DNA from: Patescibacteria group bacterium
Lineage (GTDB): Bacteria; Patescibacteriota; Minisyncoccia; Phycocordibacterales; UBA9973
Assembly: GCA_043818335.1 (NCBI GenBank)
Contig: JBDRFV010000004.1
Coordinates: 1-36,068 of the forward strand
Length of the DNA stretch: 36,068 bases
Reading direction: 5' to 3'
In this document: one piece after another, positions 7,997 to 24,467 of the stretch
Position numbering within the stretch: position 1 is the stretch's first letter
How the letters are laid out: each line of letters begins with the position of its first letter
The notes under the pieces: model-generated
Told to the model about the DNA's origin: nothing
Databases searched by the model: none
The model's input: only the letters and a program-made list of their open reading frames with translations
Position numbers and translations under genes: made by a program

Positions 7997-9400
<1,404 letters not shown>

Positions 9401-11274: not shown

Positions 11275-11691
11275 TTAAGAATTATTTTTTAGCAAAAATT
11301 TGCTTTTGATTGTTTCTAAATTAGTTTCAGAAATAATCTGGTCAAGATTTTTGGTGTGTTTTAAAAAACACATTTCCGGATCGTCCATGTTTCTTTTTGC
11401 TTTCATAAGAAAGAAACCATTTGTCGAAAGCAAGAAAACCGTTGCGTCTTGGTTAAATTTCTTGATTTTCCAAATTAACAACATGGCTGTTTTGCCATGT
11501 TCAGAGCATCCATCCAGATAGATAAGATCAAAAGCTTCGTACTCGATCCTTCTTCTTGCGTCTGCAAAAACATAGGCTTGAATGAATTCACACTCAATTT
11601 CTATTTCAAGAAAAATTTTTTCTAATAACATCTTAACTGCAGAAGATATTTTATAATTCTCTTCTACAAGCAATACTTTGATTTTTCTCAT
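11275..11691 (-). CDS. Stand-alone receiver (CheY-like REC) domain protein, paralog 1
   Basis: KIKVLLVEEN, FDLIYLDG (acceptor Asp), VFLLSTN (Ser/Thr) and CFLKH (Lys). No output domain. Confidence 0.7.
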   Translation of the reverse strand: MRKIKVLLVEENYKISSAVKMLLEKIFLEIEIECEFIQAYVFADARRRIEYEAFDLIYLDGCSEHGKTAMLLIWKIKKFNQDATVFLLSTNGFFLMKAKRNMDDPEMCFLKHTKNLDQIISETNLETIKSKFLLKNNS

Positions 11692-11702
11692 GACTGTGTT
11701 TT

Positions 11703-12125
11703 TTAGGAATTCTTTTCTACAATTTTTAATCTGATTGTCTCCAGATCTTTAGCAGAGATAATCTGTTCAAAATTTTCTACATGCTTCATGAAACACATTG
11801 TAGGATCAAAACAGTTCGTTGCTTTTATTAGAAAGTTAGGGTTGGCAGAGAGTATAAATACAGTTGCCCCTAGATTGTTTTTGTATATTTTCGGAATTAG
11901 AGGTAACGTTGACATGTTGTTCTTGAGAGTGCCGTCCAAATAAATCAAATCAAATTCCTCATGCTCGATTCGGATTCGGGTATCTGATACAGACGAAGTT
12001 CTCGTGAACTCACAGACGATTCTCATTTCTTGGTTGGGATTATAGAAAGTTTTTCCCAACAATTTTTCAATTAGATAAGCCATTTTTGGATTATCTTCTG
12101 TAATTAGTACTTTAATTTTTTCCAT
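11703..12125 (-). CDS. Stand-alone receiver (CheY-like REC) domain protein, paralog 2
   Basis: KIKVLITEDN, FDLIYLDG, VFILSAN and CFMKH. Collinear with paralog 1. Confidence 0.7.
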   Translation of the reverse strand: MEKIKVLITEDNPKMAYLIEKLLGKTFYNPNQEMRIVCEFTRTSSVSDTRIRIEHEEFDLIYLDGTLKNNMSTLPLIPKIYKNNLGATVFILSANPNFLIKATNCFDPTMCFMKHVENFEQIISAKDLETIRLKIVEKNS

Positions 12126-14888: not shown

Positions 14889-15001
14889 AAGGATTATAAG
14901 TTGTTTTTATAAGTTTATAATGTTTTAATAATATCATGCATGGGGAAGATAGGAAATGGGGGAATTTATGGTGTTGGTGGGTGGAAAATAAAGGTTAAAA
15001 A

Positions 15002-15010
15002 TGTTATAAT
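15002..15010 (+). promoter_or_regulatory. Extended -10 box TGTTATAAT upstream of hsdM
   Basis: Exact TGnTATAAT 14 nt before the ATG at 15025. TGGAAA lies 17 nt upstream as a weak -35. Confidence 0.5.
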
Positions 15011-15024
15011 CACTGCATTAATTT

Positions 15025-16476
15025 ATGTTTGAACAATCATTTAAAAATATAGATAATATTCTACACACAGATTCTGGTTGTGGCACTGAGCTTGATTATA
15101 TTGAACAGACTTCTTGGATTTTATTTTTAAAATACCTTGATGATTTAGAGGAAACTAAAAAAACAGAATTTGCTCTTGCTGGTAAAAAATATAATTATAT
15201 TCTATCTCCTGAATATCGTTGGGATACTTGGGCTTGTCCAAAAACTAAAGATGATAAATTAGATCATAATAAAATATTAAGTGGTGATGATTTAAATAAT
15301 TTTGTAAATAATAAACTTTTTTCATATCTTAAAAAATTTAGATCCGAAGAACCAAATTCAATTGAATATAAAATTGGTGAAATTTTTCATGAGCTAAAAA
15401 ATAAAATTTCCAGTGGTTATAAATTACGAGAGATTTTAAATATTGTTGATGGTATGCATTTTCGTTTACATGAAGAAAAACATGAACTTTCTCACTTATA
15501 TGAAGCTAAAATAAAAAATATGGGAAACGCTGGTAGAAATGGTGGGGAGTACTATACACCACGACCTCTTATTAAAACTATTGTTAAAGTAGTCGGTCCT
15601 AAAATCGGAGATACTATCTATGACGGAGCTTGTGGTTCTGCTGGGTTTCTAGTTGAAGCTTATAACTATCTTACAGAGAATCAATCTAAGCTTTCGCCAA
15701 GTCAGATGCAGACACTTCAAAATAAAACTTTTTATGGAAAAGAGATAAAATCTCTAGCATATATTATTGGTATTATGAATATGATATTGCATGGTATTGA
15801 AGCACCAAATATAAGACACATGGATACTCTCTCAGAAAATATTAATGATATTCAAGAGAAAGATAGATATAATATAATTTTAGCTAATCCTCCATTTGGA
15901 GCAAAGCTTGGACGCGAAATTCAGCAAAATTTTCCAATCAAATCAACTTCGTCTGATAATCTATTTTTACAACATTTTATTAAAATCCTAAAAGCTGGAG
16001 GTAGAGCAGGAATAATCATTAAAAACACTTTTCTTTCTAACACTGATAATGCGTCTGTTTCTTTAAGGAAGCTTTTATTAGAGAATTGTAATCTTCATAC
16101 AGTATTAGATTTGCCCGGTGGAGCGTTTCAGGGGGCAGGAGTTAAAACTGTAGTTCTATTCTTTGAGAAGGGGGCTCCAACTAAAAAAGTTTGGTTCTAT
16201 CAACTTAATCTTGAGCGTAATCTTGGTAAAGGTAATCCTTTAAATGAAAAAGATTTAGCTGAATTCGTTAAACTTCAAAAGACTAAAGCCGATAGCGATA
16301 ACTCTTGGAGTATAGATATTAAAGACGTAAATAAAGAAACTTTTGATTTGTCTGTTAAGAATCCAAGTAAGGGAGGAGAAGTTGTCCTAAGAGAGCCTAA
16401 GGATATTTTAGAAGAGATGGATAAGTTGGATAAAGAAAGTGAAAAAATATTATTAACAATAAAGTCTAAAATATAA
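15025..16476 (+). CDS. hsdM: Type I restriction-modification system, DNA methyltransferase subunit M
   Basis: GEYYTPRPL, AdoMet motif DGACGSAGFL and catalytic NPPFG. HsdM-type N-terminus (EQTSWILFLKYLDD). Confidence 0.93.
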   Translation: MFEQSFKNIDNILHTDSGCGTELDYIEQTSWILFLKYLDDLEETKKTEFALAGKKYNYILSPEYRWDTWACPKTKDDKLDHNKILSGDDLNNFVNNKLFSYLKKFRSEEPNSIEYKIGEIFHELKNKISSGYKLREILNIVDGMHFRLHEEKHELSHLYEAKIKNMGNAGRNGGEYYTPRPLIKTIVKVVGPKIGDTIYDGACGSAGFLVEAYNYLTENQSKLSPSQMQTLQNKTFYGKEIKSLAYIIGIMNMILHGIEAPNIRHMDTLSENINDIQEKDRYNIILANPPFGAKLGREIQQNFPIKSTSSDNLFLQHFIKILKAGGRAGIIIKNTFLSNTDNASVSLRKLLLENCNLHTVLDLPGGAFQGAGVKTVVLFFEKGAPTKKVWFYQLNLERNLGKGNPLNEKDLAEFVKLQKTKADSDNSWSIDIKDVNKETFDLSVKNPSKGGEVVLREPKDILEEMDKLDKESEKILLTIKSKI

Positions 16477-16481
16477 TTTTT

Positions 16482-16964
16482 ATGGCTGATTTAAATTTAA
16501 TTAAGGTGGAGAATAAGTTTGAAAATGGTTCTCTTGATTTTCTAAATCCAATAAATTGGTTTAGGAAAAAATACACAAAAGATAGTGTAAATATTTTATT
16601 CATTGATGACCTAGATATGCCAGTTGTGGAAAGTTTAAAGAAAGCCCACTTTAAAGTTAAAAAGGTTAGAGATGTTAAAGATGTGGATGATGCGGAAGTT
16701 AAAAATGCTCAGATAATTTTTGTCGATTTTGATGGAGTTGGAAAATTTGTGTCCCCCCAACATCAAGGTGCTGGTTTGGTTAAGGAATTAAAAATAAAAT
16801 ATAAATCTTCTAAATATGTTGTTTTTTATACAGCTCAACCTAATATACCTACAGACACAATAATGAGTTCCATGTTTAATATGGCAGATGCAAGAATGAG
16901 AAAAGATTCAGATGTAACAGATTTTACAGAACAAATACGTGAAGCCCTAAAAAAGTTAAAATGA
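16482..16964 (+). CDS. Receiver (REC)-like domain protein embedded between hsdM and hsdS
   Basis: 160 aa. ILFIDDLD (D42, D43), IIFVDFDG (D82/D84), VVFYTAQ (T117) and RMRKDS (K141) follow the order and spacing of CheY-like key residues. Assignment by eye only. Confidence 0.55.
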   Translation: MADLNLIKVENKFENGSLDFLNPINWFRKKYTKDSVNILFIDDLDMPVVESLKKAHFKVKKVRDVKDVDDAEVKNAQIIFVDFDGVGKFVSPQHQGAGLVKELKIKYKSSKYVVFYTAQPNIPTDTIMSSMFNMADARMRKDSDVTDFTEQIREALKKLK

Positions 16965-17956
16965 TTTTTTTTGAAGTAAAAGATAATAATGGAAAAATTA
17001 TTGCAGGTAATATGCAAGATTTTTCTGGAAGGAATAAGTTTGAAAACAATAAAAATTTTTCTGAAAATAAAAATGGAAAGGGGTTGAAGGGTATTCACGA
17101 AATTATAGAAAATGTTAGTCTGTGGGTAATCATTGAAGATGAGTATGATTTATTAAAAAGCTCAAAACTTCTTAAGAAAACTATTACTCTGTATAGAGTT
17201 ATTGCTCTTGGTGTATATAAACAATACAAAAAAGAGATTAACGCATATGCACATATATTAAACACAATTCAAGCACAAATTAGACAACAGTTAGATAACT
17301 TTGCTGATAATAAAGAGTTTTTCGGGGAAACATATACTGATTCAGTAGAAAAGATATCAAAAATTATAAATGATGATAAAGAATCTGCAGCTGATCTAAT
17401 CTGTTATATACAAAAGAGAATTATAGATATGAGGGCACATCTTCTTGGTGTTGAAATAATTAATTCAGGTGAAGAATATGAAATAAAACCAATGGTAGTT
17501 AGTTTGAAAAGAGCAATTTTAAATCAATGCACTCCATTTTTAGAAGAATTTGAAAAAAACATGATTAACATAAAATTCTTTTTTGGAGATGAATGTGAAA
17601 CTAAGGTTGATAAAAATATGTTTAGTCTCATTATGTATAATTTTTTTTCTAATGCAACAAAATATACTAAACCGAATAGTGAGATAAGGTTTAATTACTC
17701 AAATGATCTAAAAAGCCTTGATATTTCTATGATAAGTTTAAGAATGGAAAGGCACGAGCTTGCAGATTTATCCATGGATGGAGTGCGAGGGCAACATGCA
17801 AAAAATATACCAGGTAAAGGAATTGGTCTATTTGTTATACAAAAAGCTTTAGAATTGATGAAAAAAGACAAAATGTATATATCACCAAATTACGAAAAAG
17901 TTTTTTATGAGGATGATCTTACTTATAATGAGAATCATTTTAAATTTGTATTATGA
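16961..17956 (+). CDS. Cytoplasmic histidine-kinase-like (GHKL) protein embedded between hsdM and hsdS
   Basis: 331 aa with no TM helix. N-box MYNFFSNATKYT (N231), G2-like GKGIGLFVIQ, and a candidate H-box AYAHILNTIQ (H98). No clear DxGxG G1 box. ATGA overlaps at both ends. Confidence 0.6.
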   Translation: MIFFEVKDNNGKIIAGNMQDFSGRNKFENNKNFSENKNGKGLKGIHEIIENVSLWVIIEDEYDLLKSSKLLKKTITLYRVIALGVYKQYKKEINAYAHILNTIQAQIRQQLDNFADNKEFFGETYTDSVEKISKIINDDKESAADLICYIQKRIIDMRAHLLGVEIINSGEEYEIKPMVVSLKRAILNQCTPFLEEFEKNMINIKFFFGDECETKVDKNMFSLIMYNFFSNATKYTKPNSEIRFNYSNDLKSLDISMISLRMERHELADLSMDGVRGQHAKNIPGKGIGLFVIQKALELMKKDKMYISPNYEKVFYEDDLTYNENHFKFVL

Positions 17957-19104
17957 AAACTAAATGGCAGACAAAAAAATTTGGAGAAGTTTGTGATTTT
18001 TATAATGGAAAAGCACATGAGAAAGTTATTGATGCAAACGGCAATTATATCGTAGTAAATTCAAAGTTTATATCTTCTGATGGTGAAAAATATAAAAAAA
18101 CAAAAAAAGCACTTTTCCCGTTAATTAAAGGTGATATTGTAATGGTAATGAGTGATGTTCCAAGTGGAAAAACCTTAGCTAAGTGTTTTATTATAGATAA
18201 AGAGAATACATACACCTTAAATCAGCGAATTTGTGCCATTCGTTCTAAAGTATTTGAGACAAGATTTCTATATCTTCAACTCAACAGACATAAATATTTA
18301 TTGAGTTTTGATAATGGAGAGAATCAAACAAATCTTAGAAAAGATGATATTTTAAATTGTCCATTACTTGTTCCACCTATTTTAGAGCAAAAACATATAA
18401 TAAAAACTCTAGATGAAATGTTTGAAAAAATTAAAAAAGCCAAAGAAAATACTGAAAAGAATCTACAAAATTCTAAGGCACTTTTTGAATCGTATTTACA
18501 GGATATTTTTACGAACCCAGGAAAAGATTTAGAAGAAAAGAAATTAGGAGATGTTTGTGATTTTGTACAGGGTATTCAGGTTGACGCAAAACTTCAAAGT
18601 GAAATAAAAAAAGAAAACCAAATAAGATTTTTAAGAATAATAGATTTTACGCAAGGTGATGAATTACCTCGTTATATAGATAACCCAGGTGAAAAATATA
18701 TAATTAACTCAAATGATATTTCATTAGTTAGATACGGGGCATCAACTGGTTTTGTATGTAAGGGATTGAACGGAGTATTGGCTAATAATCTATTTAGGGT
18801 GATACCAAAAAATAACAAAGAAATATCTAATGAATATTTATATATTTTTTTAATGTCTCCTGTTTTTCAAAATTCAATTAAAGCAAGTATGGGTGGAACA
18901 GCAATGCCAGCGATAAGTTTTGGTTTAATAAAAGATATAATAATTCCATTAATGTCATTTTCTGAACAAAAAGCTATTGTCAAAAAACTTGATGAGCTTT
19001 CAAATCAAACTAAAAAACTAGAAGTTATTTACAAACAAAAGCTAGCAGATTTAGAAGACTTAAAGAAGTCGGTTTTAAAAAAGGCTTTTGTAGGGGAGTT
19101 ATAG
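17953..19104 (+). CDS. hsdS: Type I restriction-modification system, specificity subunit S
   Basis: Two target-recognition halves each open with KKFGEVCDF / KKLGDVCDF. Each is followed by a conserved helical spacer (EQKHIIKTLDE..., EQKAIVKKLDE...). Confidence 0.9.
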   Translation: MKTKWQTKKFGEVCDFYNGKAHEKVIDANGNYIVVNSKFISSDGEKYKKTKKALFPLIKGDIVMVMSDVPSGKTLAKCFIIDKENTYTLNQRICAIRSKVFETRFLYLQLNRHKYLLSFDNGENQTNLRKDDILNCPLLVPPILEQKHIIKTLDEMFEKIKKAKENTEKNLQNSKALFESYLQDIFTNPGKDLEEKKLGDVCDFVQGIQVDAKLQSEIKKENQIRFLRIIDFTQGDELPRYIDNPGEKYIINSNDISLVRYGASTGFVCKGLNGVLANNLFRVIPKNNKEISNEYLYIFLMSPVFQNSIKASMGGTAMPAISFGLIKDIIIPLMSFSEQKAIVKKLDELSNQTKKLEVIYKQKLADLEDLKKSVLKKAFVGEL

Positions 19105-19153
19105 GAATAGAGACTCCACACTAAGGCATATATAGGTAATACAAAAGTAAAAC

Positions 19154-19200
19154 AGTTTGTATACAAGTGTTGACCTAATATATACAAACTAGGGTATTTT
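19154..19200 (+). promoter_or_regulatory. Perfect 10-bp inverted repeat AGTTTGTATA-N17-TATACAAACT enclosing TTGACC
   Basis: Arms at 19154-19163 and 19181-19190. TTGACC at 19170-19175 is followed 19 nt later by TATTTT (19195-19200). Candidate operator/promoter. Confidence 0.4.
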
Positions 19201-19213
19201 GTATCTATGTAGA

Positions 19214-19282
19214 GTAGTTATGAACAGTGAATGAGTAGATTGATGTATTTTTGGGTAGATTTAGTGGCTAGTTGTGTAGATT
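19214..19282 (+). repeat. Four phased direct repeats GTAG(A)TT at 19214, 19235, 19255 and 19276
   Basis: Spacing is 21, 20 and 21 bp, about two helical turns. A tandem GATAGTAT GATAGTAT follows at 19285-19300. Confidence 0.6.
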
Positions 19283-19291
19283 TAGATAGTA

Positions 19292-19300
19292 TGATAGTAT
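19292..19300 (+). promoter_or_regulatory. Extended -10 box TGATAGTAT, 6 nt before the ATG at 19307
   Basis: Hexamer TAGTAT at 19295-19300, spacer taaaat, then ATG. Confidence 0.4.
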
Positions 19301-19306
19301 TAAAAT

Positions 19307-20026
19307 ATGGAAGAAAAATTATTAACAATTGGTCAAGCCGCTGAATATCTTGGGGTTTCTTTGAATACTCTTCGTCGTTGGGACGAAAATGGTAAATTGG
19401 TTGCTATTAAAAAAGATGGTGGAACTCATCGATATTATCGTGAAAAAGATTTAGAAATATTTACCAGTGATTTAATGAGTTTTGCTTCTGAGTGGATTAA
19501 AACAGGAGTCGAATTTCCAGGAACATTTTTTTGTCCTACAAGTTCAATTTTTAATGCTAGACTAACAAAAATGGAATATGCATTAATGCAGAAACCAGGG
19601 TTTGAAAAGTTATATTCTTTGATTGTTCTTCTTGCTGGAGAAATCGGTGATAATTCATTTGCTCATAATATAGGAAAATGGCCAGATACAGTGGGAATTT
19701 TTTTTGGTTATGATTTAGAAAAAAGAATTATCGTACTAGCTGATCGAGGATTAGGTATTTTAGAAACATTACGGAAAGTCAGACCAGGACTTTCTAGTCA
19801 TGTAGAAGCAGTCAGAGTGGCATTTACTGAATTTATTTCTGGCAGGGCTCCAGAGAAACGCGGAAATGGTCTAAAGCTTGTTCGTGAAGTAATTACAGAA
19901 AATCCAATTGATTTATTTTACACAACTGGTGATGCTGAAGTAAGAATGAAAGGTTCGGACAAAGCATTTCATGTTATGCGTGGTCAGCATATAGTGAGAG
20001 GTTGTTTAGCAAAAATAGAATTTTAA
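19307..20026 (+). CDS. MerR/excisionase-type HTH fused to an anti-sigma-kinase-like GHKL ATPase domain
   Basis: N-terminus LTIGQAAEYLGVSLNTLRRWDENGKL. The C-terminal half has GEIGDNSFAHN (N-box-like), ADRGLGI (G1-like) and RGNGLKLV (G2-like). Confidence 0.6.
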   Translation: MEEKLLTIGQAAEYLGVSLNTLRRWDENGKLVAIKKDGGTHRYYREKDLEIFTSDLMSFASEWIKTGVEFPGTFFCPTSSIFNARLTKMEYALMQKPGFEKLYSLIVLLAGEIGDNSFAHNIGKWPDTVGIFFGYDLEKRIIVLADRGLGILETLRKVRPGLSSHVEAVRVAFTEFISGRAPEKRGNGLKLVREVITENPIDLFYTTGDAEVRMKGSDKAFHVMRGQHIVRGCLAKIEF

Positions 20027-20046
20027 AATTTTAATAAATAAAAAAT

Positions 20047-20337
20047 ATGAAATTACAACTAGGAAAATTTGGCAAAACATTAATATCACGGGAATTAGGG
20101 AGTGAGGCTCTTAAGGCATTTCAGTCAACACTGCGTGAGCTTTCTAAAGATGAAGAACTTGAAATAGATTTTTCTGAGGTATTAACGTTGTCACCTTCAT
20201 GGGCTGATGAATTTTTAAGTCCACTGCTTGATATTCTTAATGATCGCTTGATTTTATTATCTAGTGATAATCTTTCAGTACAAGCAACACTTAAAATTCT
20301 TAAAGAGGTTAATAAGCGACCATTTAAAATAAGATAA
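20047..20337 (+). CDS. STAS-like (DUF4325-like) small protein
   Basis: 96 aa. The core EIDFSEVLTLSPSWADEFLSPLL resembles the DF-x-V-x3-S-x-S-F-x-DE pattern of STAS-like/anti-sigma-antagonist folds. Confidence 0.55.
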   Translation: MKLQLGKFGKTLISRELGSEALKAFQSTLRELSKDEELEIDFSEVLTLSPSWADEFLSPLLDILNDRLILLSSDNLSVQATLKILKEVNKRPFKIR

Positions 20338-20342
20338 ACTTT

Positions 20343-22700
20343 ATGAACGAATCAGAAACACGAGCAGAATACATTGACCCAAAACTTAAAGCGAGTGGCT
20401 GGGGTGAAGTGGAAGGCTCAAAAATTCTTCGAGAATTTCGTATTACAGATGGAAAAATTTTAACTGGTGGAACGAGAAGTAAACCTGAAATTGCTGATTA
20501 TGTTTTAATATATAAAAATAGAAAGATTGGAGTTGTAGAAGCTAAAGCAGAAAATTTACCAATGACTGAAGGAGTAGCTCAAGCTAAAACTTATGCAGAA
20601 AAGTTGCATATTGATTACACATATTCAACAAACGGAAAAGGAATTTATGAGATTTCAATGAAAACAGGAGAAGAGAAAGAAATTGAAAAATTTCCAACAC
20701 CTGAAGAACTTTGGAATAAAACTTTTTCTGATCAAAATGAATGGAAAGAAAAATTTGATAATATTGCCAACGAAGGCGAATATGGCAAGCGTTATTATCA
20801 ACAAATAGCTATTAGTAATGTTTTAAATGCTATTGCAGAAGATAAAAAGAAAATACTTTTAACAATGGCTACTGGAACTGGAAAAACCGCTGTCGCTTTT
20901 CAAATTGCTTGGAAACTTTTTCAAACTAGATGGACTTTAAAAGGTGATGGTGAACGACGTCCAAGAATATTATTTTTAGCTGATAGAAATATTTTAGCTG
21001 ATCAAGCATATAATGCTTTTTCTGCTTTTGATAAAGATGCATTAGTTCGTATCAATCCTTTAGATATTCGCAAGAAAGGTGGAGTGCCGATGAGTAATAG
21101 TATTTATTTTACAATTTTTCAAACTTTCATGAGTGGGGCGAATGATACACCATATTTTGGAGATTACCCAAAAGATTTTTTTGATTTTATCATTATTGAT
21201 GAATGTCATCGTGGTGGTGCAAATGATGAAAGTAATTGGCGGGGAATTTTAGAATATTTTTCTCCCGCAGTTCAATTAGGATTAACCGCTACTCCAAAAA
21301 GACAAGACAACACTGATACTTATAAATATTTTGGTGAGCCAGTTTATATTTATTCTCTTAAAGAAGGAGTGAATGATGGATTTTTGACACCATTTAAAGT
21401 TAAGCGAATAAAAACTACTTTAGATGATTATGTTTATACTTCTGATGATCAGATTATTGAAGGAGAAGTAGAAGAAGGAAAAATTTACGAAGAGTCTGAT
21501 TTTAATCGAGTTATAGAAATAAAAGAACGTGAATCTAAAAGAGTTCGTATAGTTTTAAATGAAATTAATCAAAATGAAAAGACAATTATATTTTGCGCTA
21601 CTCAAGATCATGCTTTAGCTGTCCGTGATTTAATAAATCAAATGAAAGACAGTAAGGATCCAAATTATTGTGTTCGTGTAACTGCGAATGATGGATTTCG
21701 TGGTGAACAATATTTGAGAGAGTTTCAAGACAATGAAAAAACAATTCCAACGATTTTAACTACTTCTCAAAAACTTTCTACTGGAGTAGATGCTCGTAAT
21801 ATACGAAATATTGTTTTGATGAGACCTGTAAATTCAATGATTGAATTTAAACAGATTATTGGGAGAGGAACTAGACTTTTTGATGGTAAAGAATATTTTA
21901 CTGTTTATGATTTTGTTGACGCTTATCACCATTTTGCTGATCCAGAATGGGATGGTGATCCAGTAGTAGAGATTTGTTCAAATTGTGGAAAAGATCCCTG
22001 TGAGTGTGAAAAACAGCCTCCAAAAGTATGTTCTGTATGCAATAAAAGACCTTGCGAGTGTGAAAAACCACCTAGAATTTGTCCTGTATGCAAGAAAGAC
22101 CCATGTGAATGTGATGCAAAGAAAAAAATAAAAATAAAATTAAGAGATGGAAAAGAAAGAGAAATTCAACACATGATTTCTACTTCATTTTGGGGAGCAG
22201 ATGGAAAACCTATTTCTTCTGAAGAATTTATTACTAAAATATATGGCGTATTACCAGACTTCTTCAAGAATGAAGATGAATTAAGAATAATTTGGTCTAA
22301 TCCAATAACAAGAAAAGAATTTTTACAAAGACTTTTTGATTTAGGAATTGATTTAGAACAATTAGATAATATTCGAAAAGTAGTTAATGGAGAAGATTGT
22401 GATTTATTTGATGTTCTTTCATATTTGTCATACCACACACCATTAATTACTAGACAGCAAAGAATAAATAATACAAAAGAAAATATTTTTGCTGGAGTTG
22501 ATGAAAAGAATAAAGAATTTTTAGATTTTGTTTTATCTAAGTATGAAGAAAAAGGAGTAGAAGAATTGGATGAAGAAAAATTACCACAATTACTAAATCT
22601 TAAATATCATGCAATTTCTGATGCAATAAATATTCTTGGTGATGTTGATTTAATCCGTTCAACCTTTTTTGATTTTCAAGAACATTTGTATAGTAAATAA
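20343..22700 (+). CDS. hsdR: Type I restriction-modification system, restriction/helicase subunit R
   Basis: N-terminus ESETRAEYIDPKLKASGW with the nuclease core ADYVL...GVVEAKA. Helicase motifs TGTGKT and DECHRG plus later motifs. Cys-rich insert at residues ~545-591. Confidence 0.93.
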   Translation: MNESETRAEYIDPKLKASGWGEVEGSKILREFRITDGKILTGGTRSKPEIADYVLIYKNRKIGVVEAKAENLPMTEGVAQAKTYAEKLHIDYTYSTNGKGIYEISMKTGEEKEIEKFPTPEELWNKTFSDQNEWKEKFDNIANEGEYGKRYYQQIAISNVLNAIAEDKKKILLTMATGTGKTAVAFQIAWKLFQTRWTLKGDGERRPRILFLADRNILADQAYNAFSAFDKDALVRINPLDIRKKGGVPMSNSIYFTIFQTFMSGANDTPYFGDYPKDFFDFIIIDECHRGGANDESNWRGILEYFSPAVQLGLTATPKRQDNTDTYKYFGEPVYIYSLKEGVNDGFLTPFKVKRIKTTLDDYVYTSDDQIIEGEVEEGKIYEESDFNRVIEIKERESKRVRIVLNEINQNEKTIIFCATQDHALAVRDLINQMKDSKDPNYCVRVTANDGFRGEQYLREFQDNEKTIPTILTTSQKLSTGVDARNIRNIVLMRPVNSMIEFKQIIGRGTRLFDGKEYFTVYDFVDAYHHFADPEWDGDPVVEICSNCGKDPCECEKQPPKVCSVCNKRPCECEKPPRICPVCKKDPCECDAKKKIKIKLRDGKEREIQHMISTSFWGADGKPISSEEFITKIYGVLPDFFKNEDELRIIWSNPITRKEFLQRLFDLGIDLEQLDNIRKVVNGEDCDLFDVLSYLSYHTPLITRQQRINNTKENIFAGVDEKNKEFLDFVLSKYEEKGVEELDEEKLPQLLNLKYHAISDAINILGDVDLIRSTFFDFQEHLYSK

Positions 22701-23498: not shown

Positions 23499-24467
23499 GT
23501 GAAAAAGAAAAATATTAAAAATAAAAAGTTGATTATTTTTCAAGCAAAATCTGGAGCTATTGAACTTCGAGGTGACTTTAAACGTGAAACCGTATGGGCT
23601 ACACAGGCTCAAATAGTTGAACTTTTTAGGGTTGATCAATCAGTAGTTTCTCGCCATATTAAGAATCTTTTTAAAGATGGAGAAATAAAACAAAAAAGCA
23701 ATATGCAAAAAATGCATATTGCAAATTCAGATAAACCTATAACCCTTTATTCTCTTGATGTTATTTTAGGAGTAGGCTATAGAACAAATTCAAAAATAGC
23801 TATAGAATTTAGAAAATGGGCAACAAAAACTTTAAGTAATTATATAGTAGACGGTTATGCGATAAACAAAAATAGAATTGCAAAAAATTATGATGAATTT
23901 TTGAAAACAGTAGAAAATATTAAAAATATTTTGCCATCTGGAACGGCTATAGATAATAAAGATGTAGTCGATTTAATTTCTCTTTTTGCTGATACTTGGC
24001 TTTCTTTAGATGCTTATGATAAAGAAATTTTTCCTAAAGGAAAATTAACAAGAAAAAAGGTTACTTTTACTGCTCAAACAATTTCAAAAAATCTATCACA
24101 ATTTAAAATAAGTTTATTAGAAAAAGGTGAAGCCAGCGATATTTTTGGAATAGAAAGAGAAAAGGGAAATGTTTCTGGAATTATTGGAAATGTAATGCAA
24201 TCTTTTGGTGGAAAAGAATTATACTCAACTATTGAGGAAAAAGCTGCACACCTGCTTTATTTTATGGTTAAAAATCATCCTTTTATTGATGGCAATAAGC
24301 GTAGTGGCGCATTTGTTTTTGTGTTGTTTTTACAACAAGCAAAAGTTTTAAATATCAGAAAAATTACACCATCCGCTTTAACTGCGCTTACTATTATGGT
24401 TGCAGAGAGCAACCCTAGTCATAAAGAAAAAGTTGTTAAATTAATTTTGGACTTAATTTCTAGATAA
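23499..24467 (+). CDS. RhuM-like N-terminal domain fused to a Fic/DOC domain
   Basis: The N-terminal half has ETVWATQAQIVELFRVDQSVVSRHIKNLF...AIEFRKWATKTL (RhuM-type). The C-terminal half has the Doc-type motif HPFIDGNKRSG. Confidence 0.8.
   Translation: MKKKNIKNKKLIIFQAKSGAIELRGDFKRETVWATQAQIVELFRVDQSVVSRHIKNLFKDGEIKQKSNMQKMHIANSDKPITLYSLDVILGVGYRTNSKIAIEFRKWATKTLSNYIVDGYAINKNRIAKNYDEFLKTVENIKNILPSGTAIDNKDVVDLISLFADTWLSLDAYDKEIFPKGKLTRKKVTFTAQTISKNLSQFKISLLEKGEASDIFGIEREKGNVSGIIGNVMQSFGGKELYSTIEEKAAHLLYFMVKNHPFIDGNKRSGAFVFVLFLQQAKVLNIRKITPSALTALTIMVAESNPSHKEKVVKLILDLISR

Follow-up and report, generated by a model that had tools for sequence, protein, structure and literature searches.

A receiver and histidine-kinase-like gene pair of the candidate defence family PDC-M43, lodged in the type I restriction operon of a Patescibacteria group bacterium

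We have analysed a 36,068-nt stretch of DNA, referred to here as the window, from a Patescibacteria group bacterium of the UBA9973 lineage (assembly GCA_043818335.1, contig JBDRFV010000004.1, positions 1 to 36,068 of the forward strand), in which two small genes, A (ORF160) and B (ORF331), are inserted between the methyltransferase and specificity genes of a type I restriction-modification (RM) operon. A first-pass annotation made from the sequence alone had read these genes as a receiver-like and histidine-kinase-like pair translationally coupled to each other and to hsdS. Both open reading frames (ORFs) were confirmed, as were both of the reported ATGA overlaps, the stop of A and the start of B sharing the one at 16961-16964 and the stop of B and the start of hsdS sharing the one at 17953-17956. 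The pair is part of a same-strand gene string spanning 15025-22700 in the order hsdM, A, B, hsdS, a 200-nt gap, ORF239, ORF96 and hsdR (Table 1). A sequence scan detected no terminator-like site between hsdM and hsdR. The promoter-like site preceding hsdM is a candidate for driving hsdM-A-B-hsdS, being a consensus match only, of a kind no more frequent here than in shuffled sequence. Base composition does not set the locus apart, as G+C content is ~30% throughout the window and no compositional island was observed.

Table 1. Positions of the A-B cassette, its predicted domains and the surrounding operon genes in the window.
Feature	Position	Strand	Description
Promoter-like site (candidate)	14982..15010	+	TGGAAA-17-TATAAT with TG extension, 15 nt upstream of hsdM; 10/12 consensus matches
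hsdM, type I methyltransferase	15025..16476	+	N6_Mtase 1.9e-64, HsdM_N 1.1e-8; host operon, outside cassette
Gene A (ORF160), stand-alone receiver-domain protein, PDC-M43A	16482..16964	+	
A N-terminal tail, residues 1-35	16482..16586	+	aromatic, basic, consensus FLNPKNWFKK
A receiver domain, residues 36-158	16587..16955	+	(beta-alpha)5 fold; D82 codon 16725-16727
Gene B (ORF331), cytoplasmic histidine-kinase-like protein, PDC-M43B	16961..17956	+	
B N-terminal beta domain, residues 1-60	16961..17140	+	AlphaFold2 model
B DHp-like helical hairpin, residues 68-168	17162..17464	+	H98 codon 17252-17254
B CA (GHKL) domain, residues 177-331	17489..17953	+	M257 codon 17729-17731
hsdS, specificity subunit, two target-recognition domains	17953..19104	+	Methylase_S 1.3e-33, two stretches; host operon
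ORF239	19307-20026	+	
ORF96	20047-20337	+	
hsdR, restriction subunit of the same type I system	20343..22700	+	ResIII 1e-38, EcoEI_R_C 5.6e-24

The 160-residue product of A is a stand-alone receiver, complete in its phospho-acceptor residues, an identity revealed only through structure prediction and profile-profile comparison since sequence models are blind to A; scans against Pfam and NCBIfam produced no receiver match. The AlphaFold2 (AF2) model has a mean predicted local distance difference test (pLDDT) score of 82.5, exceeding 90 across most of residues 36-120 and dropping below 50 in residues 1-15, and its secondary-structure elements follow the order β1α1β2α2β3α3β4α4β5α5 of a flavodoxin-like (beta-alpha)5 fold. 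In a Foldseek comparison with the PDB the best 50 matches were all receiver domains, including PmrA, PorX, PhoP and CheY, with E values from 8e-7 and a target TM-score of up to 0.80. Alignment of the A profile by hhalign with six canonical receivers gave a probability of 89.9% (E 1.7e-6) and placed D42/D43, D82, T117-A118 and K141 of A on D12/D13, D57, T87-A88 and K109 of CheY. D42, D43, D82 and K141 are invariant among the relatives of A, proteobacterial proteins at ~30% identity included, and position 117 is consistently Thr or Ser. All residues that the first-pass annotation had named in A (D42/D43, D82, D84, T117 and K141) are present; where it left the acceptor as either D82 or D84, the choice falls on D82, as D84 is not conserved across relatives. 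An invariant G-V-G follows the acceptor Asp in the A family. Neither Pfam nor the AF2 model revealed an output, DNA-binding or enzymatic domain in the 160 residues, only the receiver, in agreement with the earlier claim that A has no DNA-binding output.

B has a class I histidine-kinase fold, retains most of the residues that mark this class and carries in addition a small N-terminal domain. Window B matches Pfam HATPase_c at E 8e-5 with 23.5 bits, the gathering score being 26.4, and its weak matches in NCBIfam are solely to histidine kinases. HATPase_c was matched by 40/40 aligned B relatives (E<=0.1, best 2.2e-9) and HisKA by 0/40, and a B family profile searched against PDB sequences retrieved kinase catalytic and ATP-binding (CA) domains, HprS at 2.3e-9. 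The AF2 model (mean pLDDT 89.4) is composed of a five-strand beta domain in residues 1-60 (strands 2-7, 13-16, 33-37, 40-49 and 52-59; pLDDT 85-92), a hairpin of helices 68-114 and 140-168 into which an extra helix, 125-138, is inserted, and an alpha/beta domain in residues 177-330. Its best Foldseek matches are HprS, HK853, CusS, WalK and EnvZ, with E values from 5e-11 over ~250 columns on the dimerisation and histidine phosphotransfer (DHp)-CA cores. The structure prediction that the first-pass annotation had proposed as a check returned a receiver fold for A and a DHp-CA histidine-kinase core for B.

Conservation within the B family was assessed in a set that includes Yersinia, E. coli and Shewanella proteins, and H98, Q109, N231, K234, Y235, E266, G274, G277, G285, G287 and G289 are invariant in relatives down to 17% identity. 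The N box (N227-T236; N231, K234 and Y235 invariant) and the G2 box (G285-L290; G285, G287 and G289 invariant) are both intact. In canonical kinases the N-box residues and the G2 glycines hold Mg and the phosphates and the Asp of the G1 box contacts adenine. HMMER alignment to PhoR sets M257, S259 and K261 of B on the D, G and G of the D-K-G-E-G motif, so that M257 and S259, which are invariant family-wide, take the place of the G1 Asp and first Gly. The H98, N-box and GKGIGL residues reported by the first-pass annotation, as well as the missing DxGxG box, are thus borne out, and the family-wide invariance of M257 and S259 indicates that loss of DxGxG is a selected family hallmark and not decay. 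H98 lies in an H-x-L-x-T motif in which residue 99 is I, T, M, V or N among the relatives and never D or E. As the annotation had stated, B has no transmembrane (TM) helix (maximum 19-residue Kyte-Doolittle mean 0.79), and neither a HAMP domain nor a TM sensor was found by Pfam, AF2 or hydropathy. Its description of B as sensor-less did not hold, given the beta domain of residues 1-60. This domain is poorly conserved, with a ~20-residue indel between subfamilies, and because its sequence varies between subfamilies, as in input domains, the modelled fold is a candidate input or docking domain.

The pair belongs to PDC-M43. In PADLOC, A matches PDC-M43A (PDLC04646) at E 9e-27 over residues 28-156 and B matches PDC-M43B (PDLC04647) at E 5e-28 over residues 3-330; two more A models and three more B models are also matched, and PDC-M43 is the only PADLOC system matched by the pair. 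The two window genes are adjacent on the same strand with A first and a 4-nt overlap, as in the PDC-M43 cassette. PDC-M43 is cassette CAS_00151 (FAM_00604>>FAM_02649), a "guilt-by-embedding" defence candidate that is listed as untested (Payne et al. 2024, bioRxiv 10.1101/2024.01.29.577857). The correspondence extends to the near full-length match of both models, the order A then B and the embedding in type I RM genes, which was the route by which the candidate was discovered. The catalogue entry describes no mechanism, and the window member differs in coming from a lineage of candidate phyla radiation (CPR) type and from a subfamily whose receiver has lost its TM anchor. The window pair is therefore a TM-less CPR-lineage member of an already listed, uncharacterised candidate family, and our results add to the entry a structural assignment of A and B, a family-wide residue signature (H98, D82, M257, N231) and the finding that the receiver is normally membrane-anchored, the anchor having been lost in the CPR clade. 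The 'HATPase/REC' legend of DefensePredictor was considered as a possible record of the A-B pair and rejected, as it denotes other predicted systems.

Pairing of the two genes is obligate, A lying directly upstream of B in 18/18 B-holding loci and likewise in one further contig for which no DNA was available, and in most lineages the two genes share 4-8 nt at their junction. Twelve independent contexts were compared: four type I, two Dcm/MutH-like/Vsr, one EcoRI-like, one HamA/HamB, one solo near a resolvase and three mobile-element. The type I arrangements are hsdM-A-B-hsdS in the window, hsdM-A-B-(164-aa gene)-hsdS in a Kaiserbacteria metagenome-assembled genome (MAG; locus L001), A-B-half-hsdS in a Saccharibacteria MAG and, within a different type I family, hsdM-hsdS-A-B-hsdR (locus L019). 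In two loci the pair is found as MutH-like/Dcm/Vsr-A-B and A-B-Vsr/Dcm/MutH-like, in one as HTH/EcoRI-like methylase/T5orf172/GmrSD-HNH-A-B and in one, L012, as HamA/HamB (Hachiman)-TM protein-A-B. One solo pair is flanked by a resolvase and a SocA-Panacea gene, with an hsdR ~5 kb upstream, and the pair occurs alone in a Yersinia enterocolitica integrase/resolvase island, at 52495-54157 of the E. coli IncF plasmid NZ_CP148569.1, where IS3 and Tn3 flank it and NACHT and DUF3800 genes are nearby, and on a Shewanella conjugative plasmid near HigBA. A pattern scan of genome contigs yielded only 7 loci, a generic kinase among them, a number insufficient for a census, and tblastn of B against 50,697 phage records gave no match.

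Type I embedding is consequently absent from 8/12 of these contexts, and the type I hosts themselves differ in the family of their hsdR (EcoEI_R_C in the window vs EcoR124_C in the hsdS-hsdR lineage). The neighbours of A-B loci are always accessory or defence genes. Phyletic spread is patchy, from CPR bacteria to Enterobacteria plasmids, with the phosphotransfer residues invariant over this range at 17-30% identity. Since the pair recurs across type I, type II, type IV, Hachiman and solo island or plasmid settings, A-B is an autonomous, horizontally mobile two-gene cassette, lodged here inside a type I restriction operon. The first-pass annotation had taken both start/stop overlaps as arguing for a fixed stoichiometry with the HsdM2S1 core; the A-B overlap is indeed conserved in most relatives, whereas B overlaps hsdS in the window alone, an extra gene separating the two in the most closely related long contig, and specificity for HsdM2S1 is not supported, given the recurrence of the cassette beside type II or IV RM genes, beside Hachiman or alone. 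Operon embedding and start/stop overlap are thus poor evidence for a physical partnership with the host restriction enzyme. The extra gene in the Kaiserbacteria locus is a 164-aa ORF (9003-9497 of L001) without a Pfam match, which begins MKTNWQTKRLGEI and then diverges; its start nearly matches the N-terminus of the window HsdS, MKTKWQTKKFGEV, and to judge from this similarity it has the appearance of an hsdS 5' end left over or duplicated when an insertion or rearrangement took place at the junction.

The A family is predominantly one of membrane proteins. A profile search collected 756 clusters (50% identity), of which 386 reach E<=1e-10, and the anchor was surveyed in the 137 full-length proteins among the best 150 of the 756 cluster representatives. 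A clear N-terminal TM helix is present in 84 of the 137, a C-terminal hydrophobic tail in about 15, and neither in about 20 short relatives, which include the window clade. No enzymatic domain was detected among the best 150 representatives, the anchored ones carrying a single TM helix. The tail of window A occupies the position at which most relatives have the TM anchor; an amphipathic membrane-binding helix was considered for this tail and is not supported (maximum hydrophobic moment 0.50, with Gly/Pro breaks). The clade that has lost the anchor is of CPR origin and in most cases has DNA-targeting systems as its neighbours. In many anchored relatives (representatives P0132-P0259) the TM helix opens with W-[IL]-F-S-G-[IV]-G-[VA] and is joined to the receiver by a low-complexity Asn/Ser/Thr-rich linker. 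Conservation of the motif at the start of the helix suggests a specific membrane interaction or oligomerisation surface and not a generic anchor. In L012 the Hachiman genes are separated from a TM-less A gene by the gene (8536-9123) for a 195-aa protein with two hydrophobic segments, which may serve TM-less receivers as a split-off membrane partner; the window encodes no such accessory TM protein, L012 having the one example, upstream of A.

A precedent for a defensive role of a His-Asp pair is provided by Detocs (DtcA/DtcB/DtcC), a two-component system with anti-phage activity in which some effectors are transmembrane and the effector receiver carries, in 80% of systems, a domain of the purine nucleoside phosphorylase (PNP) family cleaving ATP (Rousset et al. 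2023, bioRxiv 10.1101/2023.01.24.525353). A-B resembles Detocs in combining a His-kinase-like protein with a receiver lacking a DNA-binding output in defence contexts, and the TM effectors of some Detocs systems parallel the TM helix of most A relatives. Detocs, however, has three genes, encoding a TPR-bearing kinase, a buffer receiver and an effector-fused receiver, whereas A-B has two in the opposite order. In place of the N-terminal TPR of DtcA, B has the 60-residue beta domain and no TPR match; there is a single receiver gene in the window and all related loci and hence no counterpart of the separate buffer receiver DtcB; A has no effector domain comparable to the cell-killing PNP, nuclease or TM hydrolase fused to the Detocs receiver; and the G1 box of B is non-canonical. 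A-B accordingly lacks every testable defining feature of Detocs (TPR kinase, buffer receiver, effector fusion). A literature search for kinase/receiver/TM defence pairs returned nothing relevant beyond Detocs.

With Detocs as a precedent for a His-Asp defence module, we give about an even chance to the reading that A-B is a self-contained mobile PDC-M43-family cassette acting as a minimal defensive two-component module, independent of the host RM enzyme. By the mechanism that we infer, B, as a cytoplasmic dimer, would detect an infection-related cue through its variable N-terminal domain and move phosphate between H98 and D82 of A, the phosphorylation state of which would set the output. In most relatives this output would be delivered at the membrane, probably through the receiver-fused TM helix, as an abortive-infection-type response. 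The cassette would then constitute a second, independent defence layer co-transcribed with the RM system, as PrrC does, and be neither a subunit nor a regulator of that system. Should the family prove to protect against phage, no smaller immune module based on His-Asp signalling would be known, as it consists of two small proteins and has no enzymatic effector, and the invariant Met-for-Asp kinase pocket would be a rare departure within a fold that has been studied in great depth.

Several observations weigh against this reading. The anti-phage role of the PDC-M43 family has candidate status only, PDC-M43 is named in no searchable main text of the literature, and the sample of 12 contexts is small. 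Response_reg was matched at E<=0.1 by 0/31 members of the A family, and an hmmsearch of the PDB with the family profile retrieved no receiver. Window A has no TM segment (maximum Kyte-Doolittle value 0.71, in residues 1-35) and, with no clear amphipathic helix either, shows no evident effector. B has Met instead of the G1 Asp and no acidic residue after the His, and as these two prerequisites of canonical autophosphorylation are missing it may not be a kinase at all. A pair in which B does not autophosphorylate with ATP and A is phosphorylated by donors of the acetyl phosphate type, or not at all, is in our judgement fairly unlikely; B would in that case act through its DHp hairpin as a phosphatase, phospho-sink or conformational partner, with a re-tooled pocket binding some other ligand. 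The exchange of the G1 Asp for an invariant Met and of the first Gly for an invariant Ser, the non-acidic H+1 position, the absence of HisKA matches throughout the 40 family members and the sub-gathering HATPase_c score of window B are all consistent with such a pair, but N231, K234, Y235 and the G2 glycines are invariant family-wide, as are H98 and the complete acceptor set of the receiver. The question also concerns chemistry only and is compatible with the defence-cassette reading. A further proposal, that B with its family-wide Met-for-Asp exchange uses or senses a non-ATP nucleotide or a phage-derived ligand and controls a receiver that is itself the effector, inserted in the membrane in most lineages and retargeted in the TM-less clade to, for example, HsdM2S1, we consider unlikely.

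The association of the cassette with mobile elements fits addiction or stabilisation equally well as defence. A toxin-antitoxin-like module, in which B would restrain the latent toxicity of a membrane-anchored receiver and the cassette would serve to retain islands and plasmids and not to defend against phage, is suggested by the occurrence of the pair on conjugative plasmids and integrase/resolvase islands and near IS3, Tn3, HigBA and SocA-Panacea, by the two overlapping genes and by the TM protein of most relatives. Toxicity of A is a supposition only, though, and the receiver of the window lacks a TM segment, which leads us to regard a pure addiction role as very unlikely; many toxin-antitoxin modules also act in defence, such that the two readings overlap. 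That TM-less receivers lie mostly next to DNA-targeting systems speaks for a dedicated modulator, in which A and/or B would bind either HsdM2S1 or HsdR and act as a switch of methylation or restriction in response to an intracellular cue. The embedding and the overlap with hsdS in the window, the operon free of internal terminator-like sites, the receiver devoid of a DNA-binding or enzymatic output and the four of 12 contexts within or against type I genes agree with this explanation. It is countered by pairs with no hsd genes nearby, on plasmids and islands and beside type II/IV RM or Hachiman genes, by the variable position in type I operons of different families (EcoEI_R_C vs EcoR124_C hsdR) and by the missing B-hsdS coupling in the closest long-contig relative, and we judge it decidedly unlikely. 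Given these promiscuous contexts, action of the TM-less clade on the neighbouring restriction complex is not favoured. An ordinary housekeeping two-component system lying beside restriction genes by chance is the least credible of the alternatives, its probability being close to negligible: some source annotations do name relatives 'HAMP domain-containing histidine kinase' or 'response regulator', but A has no output domain, B has neither HAMP nor TM sensor, phyletic distribution is patchy from CPR bacteria to Enterobacteria plasmids and the neighbourhoods are always made up of accessory or defence genes. Of the phosphorelay or degenerate ATP-binding switch that the first-pass annotation had envisaged, what stands is a receiver and cytoplasmic kinase-like pair with conserved phosphotransfer residues and a degenerate pocket, and what is not supported is Hsd-specific action; its observations are confirmed and its interpretation is partly supported.

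Two other comparisons help to place the defence-cassette reading. PrrC, an ABC-ATPase/nuclease protein, is an anticodon nuclease that hardly ever occurs outside type I RM loci, where the RM enzyme keeps it in a latent state. As with A-B, a separate defence function is there nested in a type I RM operon (the type Ic prr/EcoprrI), and the L019 relative of A-B sits in the same hsdS-hsdR slot as prrC; PrrC is, however, unrelated to A or B, and A-B, unlike PrrC, is not confined to type I loci. PrrC is cited as the archetype of embedding (Payne et al. 2024, bioRxiv 10.1101/2024.01.29.577857). With class I histidine kinases and single-domain regulators such as HK853-RR468, CheY and Spo0F the pair shares the DHp-CA core, the H-x-L-x-T motif, the N and G2 boxes, the (beta-alpha)5 receiver and the D-D/D/T/K residues. 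It departs from these systems in the Met/Ser of G1, the lack of an acidic H+1 residue and of HisKA and Response_reg matches, the extra DHp-loop helix of B, the invariant G-V-G after the acceptor Asp of A, and a distribution that is mobile and defence-island-associated.

The window contains other genes of possible defence or signalling function. ORF239 and ORF96 (19307-20337), between hsdS and hsdR, are a further module of two genes embedded in the operon. The N-terminus of ORF239 is of the HTH_17/MerR type (1.8e-11), also matches PADLOC mad1 and is followed by a C-terminal part of ~180 aa, and ORF96 has a weak match to DUF4325 (STAS-like). ORF239 has 4297 homologues, with >100 clusters that are 85-89% identical, nearly all 239 aa long and from CPR lineages. 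The two genes are adjacent in three other contigs beside RM genes, their neighbours being hsdR-hsdM, Dcm/HATPase_c_3/hsdR and type IIG methyltransferase/SNF2/Mrr, and no other A-B locus contains the module. It may represent a regulator associated with RM systems or a further candidate for defence. A GHKL-like C-terminal half of ORF239, proposed from motifs seen by eye, received no support from Pfam or from a PDB sequence search.

Approximately 5 kb upstream of the RM operon lie two tandem paralogous ORFs of about 138-140 aa on the minus strand (11275-11691 and 11703-12125), which lack an output domain and show the receiver-like pattern VLLVEEN/VLITEDN ... DLIYLDG. A weak Response_reg match (E 0.005) was obtained for the second alone, and the two may be degenerate orphan receivers. 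They were not found in other A-B loci. Both this tandem pair and ORF239/ORF96 were considered as parts of the A-B system and rejected, as none recurs at other A-B loci. Just downstream of hsdR, a 322-aa ORF (23499-24467) encodes a protein which, on a reading of its sequence against family motifs, resembles RhuM-type virulence proteins in its N-terminal half and Fic/DOC at its C-terminus. A RhuM+Fic gene also adjoins the ORF239 module in another contig, L022, and this suggests that the neighbourhood recurs.

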